From NCBI GenBank assembly GCA_041653535.1, contig JBAZFH010000003.1:2771-66770 (forward strand): a stretch of DNA of 64,000 bases, written 5' to 3'. Numbering within the stretch: the stretch's first letter is position 1; every line of letters starts with the position of its first letter. The notes below the pieces were generated by a model. It did no database searches and was not told the origin of the DNA. It saw nothing but the letters and a program-made list of their open reading frames with translations. This DNA is from Patescibacteria group bacterium. Its GTDB lineage: Bacteria > Patescibacteriota > Patescibacteriia > JACRDY01. Of this stretch, positions 60,407 to 61,763 are shown piece by piece. The position numbers were made by a program, and so were the translations under genes.

Positions 60407-60727
60407 ATGGTAGTGTTTTTATTAAAAATTACGTTATTATTTTAGCATAATTTTATCCTTTTTTCCACTTTTTATGGTGTTTTAATTTATCTAAATTTAG
60501 ACGAAAAAACAGTGTGGATAAGATGGTATTAATAGTTGGTTAAACAATAGTCGTTTGCAGTGATTCAATTCAAGTGACAGACGGGGGTAAACAAACATTT
60601 TAACAAGTTAAGCACTTTACGGGAATAAAGTTTTATACTATATTTTAGTATTACCCATGTTGGGTAAACCCGGGCCTCGGGGAGGGGCAAAATTTCGGGC
60701 AACGAGCCTGAAAAAGGAGGAATGATT

Positions 60728-61672
60728 ATGGGTTCTTTAAAAAGAGTTAAAAGTTTTGATGATCTTACACACAAGCAATGGATTGCCTTGGGTACTAAGA
60801 TGGGTGGAGTGCAAAAAGTGATTGCCGTTCTTCAAGGTGATAAAAATGTTATTCTTGAAGATATTTGTGTGCTCGTGGATAAGAACGGTCGTTGCATTCC
60901 CCAGCGGGGAGTAGTAACCGCGAACGTCTGCGATCCGAGCGCTGATTATCGCTTTGAAGGTTTGACTGGCTATGTGAATTACGCAACTATTATTCTGATG
61001 TGGGAAGCGCTTTTTGAGCAGAAGGCTGGGATGACTCCGGTCGAGTTTGAACAACGCATTGAGGCAATCAAGCAGCGGGTTGCGACCTGGTCAATGGCGA
61101 GCAAACCGCAGATCGCGAATTTATTTGCCGGTCCGCACTTTCCAATAATTTTGCCGCAGTTGCCGGCTGGTGACCACGGCATTATCATCAGAAACCACAT
61201 TTTACCGGTAGTGGAGCGCGCGTATTTAATGGCGTTCCACAACGGAGAATTTACCAGTAACCGGCATGAAGACCTCGCGGAAAACACGAAGATCGTGGAC
61301 GAACGGCACGCGAAACTGGTCGCCGATTTGGAGCAAGGCCCGATCCCGGGCATCATGTGCTATCCGCTTCAGGGCTTCGATATTATTGCCCAGCAGCAGA
61401 TGGCAGCTTTAATGCCGGATTTTATTTCGTTGGCAGGCGCCATTGAGCCGGGTGTGACCCTGGCTCTGTATCCAAAGCTTCTGGCTGGAGCTAAAACGCC
61501 CAACCAGGATTGCTCCGCGATTAGATGGCAGCCTGGTTTATTAGATCCTTCAACGCTCTTATACATCAGTCGTAGCTATCCCGATGGTGACGATGAATGC
61601 TCTTTTGATGGTCCATACAATCTTAATGATGTTTATGGTCACCATTCAGGTGGGTTCTTCGTCCGTGGATAG
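60728..61672 (+). CDS. hypothetical protein encoded by a GC-rich (about 50-55% by eye) gene with consensus Shine-Dalgarno; probable horizontally acquired cassette
   Basis: AAGGAGG at 60714-60720 lies 7 nt before the ATG at 60728. Codon usage is GC-rich (gcg/ccg/cgc) unlike its neighbours, and spurious antisense ORFs appear, as expected for GC-rich DNA. No motif is recognised. Confidence 0.6.
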   Translation: MGSLKRVKSFDDLTHKQWIALGTKMGGVQKVIAVLQGDKNVILEDICVLVDKNGRCIPQRGVVTANVCDPSADYRFEGLTGYVNYATIILMWEALFEQKAGMTPVEFEQRIEAIKQRVATWSMASKPQIANLFAGPHFPIILPQLPAGDHGIIIRNHILPVVERAYLMAFHNGEFTSNRHEDLAENTKIVDERHAKLVADLEQGPIPGIMCYPLQGFDIIAQQQMAALMPDFISLAGAIEPGVTLALYPKLLAGAKTPNQDCSAIRWQPGLLDPSTLLYISRSYPDGDDECSFDGPYNLNDVYGHHSGGFFVRG

Positions 61673-61733
61673 TATTGGTTTTTGACTTTACGTTCGCCTG
61701 CTTGGTGAACGGTCGCCACAAAAACGGTAATTC

Positions 61734-61763
61734 GGGGGCGTATTCGTACGCTCCCTTTTCTTT
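61734..61763 (+). terminator. strong GC-rich rho-independent terminator after the GC-rich gene
   Basis: gggggcgtaTTCgtacgctccc followed by ttttctttta. Confidence 0.7.

Follow-up and report, generated by a model that had tools for sequence, protein, structure and literature searches.

A GC-rich patescibacterial gene with a covarying leader RNA belongs to a family of diversity-generating retroelement targets

Why should a single gene beside gyrB differ so clearly in composition and translation signals from the genes around it, and what does it encode? The question arises in a 64,000-nucleotide stretch of a Patescibacteria group bacterium (GenBank assembly GCA_041653535.1, contig JBAZFH010000003.1, positions 2,771 to 66,770 of the forward strand; hereafter the window), in which an open reading frame (ORF) of 314 aa at 60728–61672 had been put down by an initial annotation, made from the letters alone, to a probable recent horizontal acquisition. 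That annotation overlooked the identity of the gene, which belongs to a family of variable proteins associated with diversity-generating retroelements (DGRs). The explanation that we favour, and hold with considerable confidence, is that the locus is a self-contained expression unit for a member of a DGR-target family, that it carries a covarying leader RNA, and that its GC signature is shared across the family. DGR targets in bacteria of the candidate phyla radiation (CPR) are a known kind of gene; new would be a leader dedicated to the family, a signature in composition and translation that runs through all of it, and the lack of a recognisable fold for displaying the variable repeat (VR). 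Coordinates below are those of the window, and features lie on the forward strand unless stated otherwise.

Searches of Pfam, NCBIfam, PHROGs, PADLOC and the PDB sequences with the 314-residue protein gave nothing but noise and a DidA fragment of 15 bits. Out of 5.8 billion proteins, a word-indexed search picked only 13 relatives, all unnamed or hypothetical, and the two that carry a taxon label are assigned to Patescibacteria group and Candidatus Parcubacteria. An exhaustive profile search extended the set to 570 cluster representatives (313 below 1e-30, most of about 300 aa); the family is thus sizeable yet unannotated. Among the labelled family records most are from Magasanikbacteria, Buchananbacteria, Kerfeldbacteria, Parcubacteria or Saccharibacteria, and the family appears in the present survey only in Patescibacteria, apart from three third-party annotation (TPA) records labelled Gammaproteobacteria. 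The protein has no homologues in phage, plasmid and IMG/VR collections; this speaks against cargo carried by a phage or plasmid, and the candidate was set aside. For comparison of genomic contexts, 45 further family loci were collected and their flanking ORFs clustered.

The identity of the family emerges from eight non-redundant loci (L012, L014, L017, L018, L031, L032, L040 and L049) that are linked to a DGR. In these, the gene is followed on its 3' side by its own terminator, by an Asn-rich pseudo-copy of its C-terminus (the template repeat, TR), by bAvd (Pfam PF22296, E 1e-18 to 1e-20) and by a reverse transcriptase (RT; Pfam RVT_1, E 1e-21 to 1e-22) with the motifs IGN(L/V/I)TSQ and YADD. 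The VR/TR pairs span 110–130 nt, end at the stop codon and are 81–95% identical; the mismatches located at TR adenines number 13/13, 16/16, 14/15, 24/25, 21/24, 15/15, 14/15 and 6/7 in the eight loci, respectively. Translations of the TR are rich in Asn, and the VR departs from them at exactly those codons, as illustrated by WQSSENSLYFKANDDNANFDNRANLADANDNYSGGLLFIG in a TR and WQSSEDSLCFKACDDGAYFGLRADLADAYDGYSGGLLFIG in the corresponding VR. Adenine-specific mismatches, here together with an adjacent bAvd and RT, are the defining signature of a DGR, and the family can therefore be assigned as DGR variable (target) proteins. In these relatives, RT and bAvd would copy the nearby TR into the last ~40 codons of the gene and randomise the adenine-templated positions, with a hypervariable and presumably ligand-binding C-terminal surface as the outcome. 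The relatives resemble established DGR targets (Mtd of Bordetella phage BPP-1, TvpA of Treponema, and those of CPR DGRs) in having a C-terminal VR of ~120 nt that ends at the stop codon, and known DGRs more generally in the adenine-specific divergence and the Asn codons (AAY) of the TR, in the adjoining bAvd and RVT_1 genes, and in a hairpin downstream of the VR. CPR bacteria possess a DGR clade of their own ('DGR clade 2'; Roux et al. 2021, PMC8144416), and their DGR targets are mostly unannotated, with unknown VR classes UVR1–6 (Wu et al. 2018, PMC5758913).

Several features of the linked cassettes deserve mention in their own right. The order in all DGR-linked loci is target (+), terminator, TR (+), bAvd (-) and RT (+), so that avd, placed between TR and RT, is encoded on the strand opposite to both and diverges from RT; in L040, for instance, the TR occupies 7249–7374 (+), avd 7730–7404 (-), and RT starts at 7764 (+). 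In the usual DGR arrangement avd, TR and RT are all on one strand, and the divergent avd of the linked loci thus looks unusual. The RT frame is apparently split into two ORFs or cut short in L012/L036, L017, L018, L031, L040 and L049. L017 contains two family genes (4304–5206 and 7321–8343) that flank one DGR, each with its own copy of the leader and with 3' portions of ~280 nt that are 85% identical, and is a multi-target DGR.

In the window, the gene reads as part of one self-contained transcription unit at about 60616–61764 that comprises promoter, leader, strong Shine-Dalgarno sequence (SD), ORF, 3'-untranslated-region (3'-UTR) hairpin and terminator. A consensus scan places a promoter-like site (TTTACG-17-TATATT) at 60616–60644, with a predicted transcription start site at ~60649–60651, at the base of the leader hairpin P0, and sigma-70-like -35/-10 boxes lie 5–9 nt 5' of P0 in most related loci. 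The same type of scan gives a gyrB-directed promoter-like site on the reverse strand at 60467–60439. The SD, AAGGAGG at 60714–60720, stands 7 nt ahead of ATG 60728, which is likely to be the start codon because the alternative ATG at 60722 lies too near the SD and the homologues begin with MGSL or MSSL; the ORF ends with TAG at 61670–61672. A strong SD is kept in all aligned family leaders and is rare in the rest of the window, where GGAGG precedes a plausible start codon at only three of ~50 genes; besides 60716, the cases are 13874 (ORF 13884–14327) and 58201 (an internal start of ORF 57505–58254). Translation in this organism therefore seems to rely little on strong SDs, in agreement with the initial annotation, which had called this SD textbook and unlike those of native genes. 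The unit is closed by a predicted intrinsic terminator at 61734–61764, a 9-bp stem with six GC pairs (61734–61755) followed by the T-run TTTTCTTTT, again as the initial annotation had described, and a GC hairpin with a T-run ends the transcription unit in nearly all related family loci.

The intergenic region between gyrB and the ORF (60407–60727) measures 321 nt, of which the leader takes up only ~80 nt (about 60649–60727); as this leader is conserved and structured, the earlier suggestion of a regulatory RNA in the region was broadly apt. The leader opens with hairpin P0 (UUACCCA-UGU-UGGGUAA, 60651–60667), present in the minimum free energy (MFE) fold. In an alignment of 32 leaders, a hairpin of this type ends 0–2 nt before a conserved CCC in ~29 of the 32, with unrelated sequences and low folding energies (mean z -2.0; below -1 in 27 of 32). 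The core follows at 60669–60688 and is built around stem b, which pairs GCCUC (60674–60678) with GGGGC (60684–60688); it holds the G-rich tract GGGCCTCGGGGAGGGGC at 60672–60688, which the initial annotation had already picked out. Complementarity between CCC at 60669–60671 and the loop GGG at 60679–60681 defines stem a, a candidate H-type pseudoknot. The core is joined by a conserved A-rich linker (AAAA, 60689–60692) to hairpin P2 of the MFE fold (UUUCGGGC-AACGA-GCCUGAAA, 60693–60713), which abuts the SD. Compensatory changes are found in all five pairs of stem b, with 97.5% of alignment cells paired, and in five of the seven pairs of P2, where many pairs are G-U; over the whole leader 95% of cells are paired and 11 of 15 pairs show double changes. 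None of 500 shuffled alignments matches the observed values, and controls in which the pairing was slid collapse. The frequency of G-U pairs argues that the conserved object is a sense-strand RNA rather than a DNA palindrome. The near-invariant core nucleotides are CCC, GCCUCGGG, A, GGC and AAAA.

The association of this leader with the family is exclusive in the material searched. A covariance model built without the pseudoknot produced 45 matches in 459 kb, and 45 of the 45 lie directly 5' of a family gene and end at its start codon; they include the second, unseeded copy in L017 and exactly one site in the window (60646–60730). The architecture recurs before nearly all members of the family, independently of the host and of a DGR nearby. 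Rfam 15 contains no family that matches the leader or the 3' UTR at gathering thresholds or at permissive E-values, nor the isolated leader at E up to 10, the best scores in the leader being 12–14 bits against thresholds of 34–51; at gathering thresholds, the only Rfam matches in the window are four tRNAs. The leader is thus a conserved structured RNA, exclusive to the family in the material searched and uncatalogued in Rfam 15. A G-quadruplex formed by the G-tracts was considered and rejected, as most homologues interrupt these tracts (GAGAGGC and similar). An upstream ORF of 22 codons (MLGKPGPRGGAKFRATSLKKEE followed by a stop codon) at 60657–60725 runs from the P0 loop into the spacer between SD and ATG, and is probably fortuitous, since other leaders do not preserve its ATG.

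How, then, does the composition of the gene arise? The window as a whole has 39.3% GC, and we ranked the gene within a set of 50 ORFs that do not overlap and are 120 aa or longer. The ORF has a GC content of 48.6–48.8%, depending on whether it is counted from 60722 or 60728 (48.8% from ATG 60728), and ranks first of the 50 both for GC (set mean 0.387, sd 0.034; z ~+2.9) and for GC at third codon positions (GC3; 0.508 against 0.359, sd 0.050; z ~+3), with gyrB as runner-up. GC in a sliding window of 300 nt runs at 0.49–0.54 across 60850–61750, reaching 0.52–0.54 between 61000 and 61600, and within the ORF it is lower in the first ~50 and last ~45 codons than in the middle. Synonymous codons ending in G or C are over-represented for most amino acids, so the excess does not stem from amino-acid composition. 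The jump in GC that the initial annotation had estimated by eye is therefore real and makes the gene a clear quantitative outlier, and the spurious antisense ORFs that it mentioned are also there, with lengths of 105, 125 and 65 aa.

The initial annotation took this composition as the mark of a cassette newly arrived from a GC-richer donor and not yet ameliorated, a view that gains from the z-scores near +3, from an SD that differs from those of other window genes, and from the unrelated genomic contexts of distant family members, which sit in a pilus operon (L002) or next to def/fmt and LigT (L003). These contexts show that the gene has moved over long evolutionary time. The offset itself, however, is a property of the family: in 26 of the 27 loci whose flanks are long enough for a comparison, the gene exceeds the neighbouring ORFs in GC, in hosts that range from 31 to 56% GC, with mean differences from the flanking ORFs of +0.10 in GC and +0.16 in GC3 and with the top GC3 of the locus in most cases. 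Such a systematic excess over the host is unlike known DGR targets. Gene GC also tracks host GC in part (slope 0.49, intercept 0.32, r 0.54). In L032 the target has a GC content of 0.50 amid flanking ORFs, RT included, that average 0.31 (the RT was judged AT-rich from its amino-acid make-up, its GC not being computed separately), which indicates that the excess belongs to the target gene and not to a co-transferred cassette. L006 has a 59%-identical copy of the gene followed by a 300-aa homologue (41% identity) of the 298-aa protein encoded downstream in the window, and its gene shows a larger offset than in the window (0.585 against a background of 0.416); the shared neighbour means that the arrangement is older than the divergence of the two genomes, which are well separated. 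The initial annotation had itself named orthologues of the same composition at this position in relatives as evidence against its proposal, and L006, one relative compared over the downstream flank, comes near to this, the gene not being missing from that position.

Nor does the locus carry features of mobility. No integrase or other mobility gene and no adjacent tRNA was found near the gene, the nearest tRNA being 8 kb away, and the direct or inverted repeats sought on both sides came down to weak AT-rich matches, so that mobile-element ends around the gene were rejected as a candidate; its neighbours are gyrB, the 298-aa membrane protein and RodA. Taken with the absence of homologues from phage, plasmid and viral-contig collections, these observations make a recently acquired cassette quite improbable. 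What stands of the earlier proposal is a foreign-looking composition and a unit with promoter, leader, SD and terminator of its own; what does not is recent transfer as the cause of the GC excess. The GC and GC3 excess, the textbook SD, the TAG stop and the strong terminator all go with the family from host to host, and as such do not testify to a recent transfer into this genome.

Does the copy in the window still take part in DGR diversification? Its protein aligns over the full length with those of the DGR-linked L018, L031, L032, L040 and L049 at 29–34% identity and belongs to the DGR-linked family with a profile E of 1.5e-126. The VR starts of the eight linked loci map to residue ~266 of the window protein, which places a VR-equivalent (WQPG...HHSGGFFVRG and stop) at 61523–61672. 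Within the clade formed by the window protein and P0002–P0006 (47–59% identity overall), identity in the VR is 18% at DGR-diversified columns and 68% at other VR columns, a comparison whose pairs are not independent and whose p-value is accordingly overstated. The clade thus bears a footprint of DGR-type diversification. An alignment of the window VR-equivalent to the TRs of other genomes was uninformative, the sequences being too divergent.

Our favoured explanation has to be set against a number of observations that do not sit easily with it. Searches with tblastn found no RT or Avd in the 64-kb window or in the 5.7 kb downstream in L001, and no template repeat occurs in that 5.7 kb or, for 61301–61800, anywhere in the window, unlike the situation at known DGR targets; ~13 other family loci with 5–10 kb of flank likewise have no DGR nearby, and copies unlinked to a DGR appear to be common in the family. 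The window VR-equivalent has an insertion of ~8 residues and departs from otherwise invariant scaffold positions (SL.F.A becoming SRSYPD). Its GC exceeds background by only +0.05 in the VR decile, against a family average of +0.17; the family-average enrichment peaks in this decile, whereas in the window the VR-equivalent is the least enriched part bar the N-terminus. The structural model of the protein is of good quality (AlphaFold2, pLDDT 82, pTM 0.81), and a Foldseek search of it against PDB and BFVD gave nothing convincing, with neither a C-type lectin nor any other fold recognised; in this, and in the lack of a Pfam domain, the family differs from known DGR targets. For the leader, stem a is pairable in 97.9% of cells and shows a single double change (GCC/GGC in L003) along with C-to-U wobbles, and the CCC/GGG pseudoknot is at present plausible. 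Finally, avoidance of A at invariant TR/VR positions can account for the 3'-terminal GC peak but cannot account for the excess over the whole gene. The latter might stem from repeated transfers that have not fully ameliorated, from conversion between copies with a bias to GC, or from selection on the nucleic acid itself.

Since neither RT, Avd nor a template repeat is found in the 64 kb, the window copy would either be diversified in trans, by a DGR in another part of the genome, or stand alone and possibly be in decay. Active diversification in trans by a DGR outside the window is conceivable and on balance rather doubtful. Non-adjacent, remote DGR targets have been documented (Wu et al. 2018, PMC5758913), the proteins of the window clade differ at exactly the columns that DGRs diversify, and both the ...SGGFFVRG-TAG end and the downstream hairpin are retained; on the other hand, DGRs do not mutate the scaffold positions that have changed here, alongside the insertion, the lower GC and the lack of a TR within 64 kb. 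Together, insertion, scaffold changes and low VR GC fit decay, and constitute weak evidence that the copy is no longer refreshed from a template. Either way, we regard the unit as an expression unit for a DGR-family variable protein whose DGR is not visible in the window.

The 3' end of the gene has features of its own. A hairpin, H1 (CGUUCGCC-UGCUU-GGUGAACG), folds at 61691–61711, and the folding energy of 61670–61775 has a z of -3.95; L006, L003 and L021 have hairpins at a similar 3' position with different sequences. A GC-rich inverted repeat occurs downstream of DGR VRs (PMC5758913), and H1 may, by analogy, be a counterpart of this element and serve in retrohoming. Family genes end in a conserved ...SGG(F/L)..(R)G-TAG, and TAG is the stop codon in 26 of 28 family members as against 11 of 49 other window ORFs. 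The first 80 nt of the 3' UTR are rich in TTGG repeats (CTTTGG, TTTTGG), with 77 observed and 18.6 expected over 28 loci; in the window this TTGG-rich 3' UTR lies at 61673–61752, and L006, L011, L013, L014, L017, L018, L032, L049 and others have the same. In several linked loci the TAG of the VR corresponds to TTG in the TR. The repeats and the TAG stop are possibly tied to the initiation of mutagenic homing or to target recognition.

What might the leader do? We suggest that it acts in cis, as RNA, on the translation or stability of its own mRNA. Association with one family and near-invariant loop nucleotides favour a specific binding partner, and we prefer a mechanism in which a protein recognises the leader as its operator, the simplest candidate being the family product itself: the invariant part of the variable protein would bind the leader and occlude the adjoining SD, resulting in autoregulation. 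Such an operator would be comparable to autoregulatory leaders of ribosomal-protein genes and the ThrRS operator, in which a short covarying structure between promoter and SD serves a single gene. We prefer it over a classical SD-sequestering riboswitch because the SD, unlike in known leaders and riboswitches, is unpaired in the MFE fold of the window leader, because the window leader contains no terminator, and because changes in stem b are not matched by the SD; a classical SD-sequestering or attenuating riboswitch is unlikely on these grounds. A switch in which CCUC pairs with the SD was rejected as a general mechanism, given that stem b covaries to GCCAC, GCCGC and GUCUC without corresponding changes in the SD.

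Preference for a protein-bound operator does not exhaust the options. Small riboswitches with a pseudoknot include preQ1-I and SAM-II, and the compact conserved core, possible H-type pseudoknot and A-rich stretch beside the SD of the family leader recall them; together with the covariation and the lack of an Rfam match, this could indicate a new riboswitch class that senses a metabolite or an ion. Riboswitches, however, usually control several gene families and this leader accompanies only one, no conserved anti-SD was seen in the inspected family leaders beside the free SD and missing terminator described above, and the putative pseudoknot uses the 5' flank and a hairpin loop instead of the 3' tail used in preQ1-I and SAM-II. 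We therefore consider a new riboswitch unlikely. Less remote, and still rather doubtful, is a constitutive stabiliser or translation enhancer, in which a 5' hairpin would protect against 5'-end-dependent RNases and a structured stand-by site and strong SD would provide an expression module portable to any host. The position of P0 at the predicted 5' end, the exposed and exceptionally strong SD in an SD-poor genome, and a unit that always comes with its own promoter and terminator are in keeping with this idea, which leaves the near-invariant core nucleotides unexplained, as a generic stabiliser needs structure and not conserved sequence.

Structured RNAs have been associated with DGR loci before, among them RT-10 and other RT-associated motifs (PMC5737381), and in this respect the family leader is not without parallel. 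RT-10 has its place between TR and RT, with a proposed role in cDNA priming (Weinberg et al. 2017, PMC5737381), whereas the family leader is part of the target gene's 5' UTR, lies ~850 nt upstream of the VR, and occurs also where no DGR is nearby. In the literature searched, DGR-associated RNAs are described only between TR and RT, RT-10 being an example (PMC5737381), and nothing was found there on the control of DGR target genes at the level of RNA.

Some neighbouring features of the window are recorded here for completeness. The 298-aa protein downstream of the gene (61873–62769) is predicted to be membrane-anchored and has no Pfam match; its homologue in L006 lies at 1681–2583 (41% identity). 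No other neighbour is conserved in a second family locus, a hint that this protein and the variable protein are paired in a lineage-specific way. Next to gyrB, an unannotated ORF of 228–249 aa on the reverse strand (57505–58254) has AAGGAGG-N5-ATG, with the SD at 58201, and could likewise be an accessory gene or one of foreign type. The 64 kb contain just one perfect DnaA box, TTATCCACA at 60513–60521 (reverse strand), in the spacer between gyrB and the 314-aa ORF; a DnaA-box cluster or origin was rejected there, as the perfect box is single and boxes with one mismatch are not enriched (25 against 18 expected). At 795–11345, a 3516-aa ORF with matches to Big_7 and VWA_2 and faint matches to type IV secretion system (T4SS) pilin, Big_5 and TIG likely encodes a surface adhesin or pilus-associated protein, and is followed by the FtsA and FtsZ genes.

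What does this locus tell us about DGR targets in Patescibacteria? DGRs are abundant in these CPR bacteria, and most of their targets are without recognisable motifs and of little-known function (Wu et al., PMC5758913). An unannotated family of ~570 clusters is now tied to DGR targeting, with many members far from a visible DGR, and such genes could be sought by their signatures in sequence: raised GC and GC3, a TAG stop in nearly all members and a 3' UTR rich in TTGG. These signatures also hint that the DNA or RNA of DGR targets is under constraints as yet unexplored. Those who scan genomes may take from this that a compositional outlier is not necessarily a recent transfer. Going further, and only tentatively, the leader, whether riboswitch or operator, could represent a new class of regulatory RNA for DGR variable proteins that couples the expression of a hypermutable, apparently cytoplasmic binding protein (no obvious signal peptide is seen by eye) to a signal, with the VR displayed on a scaffold other than the C-type lectin and the gene body under selection at the nucleic-acid level. 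If a dedicated leader and a non-lectin scaffold are indeed combined in this way, the family would constitute a distinct, regulated DGR target system in Patescibacteria. Knowing which ligand or protein binds the leader could reveal when these symbiotic bacteria bring their hypervariable proteins into play and, from that, what purpose the proteins serve.

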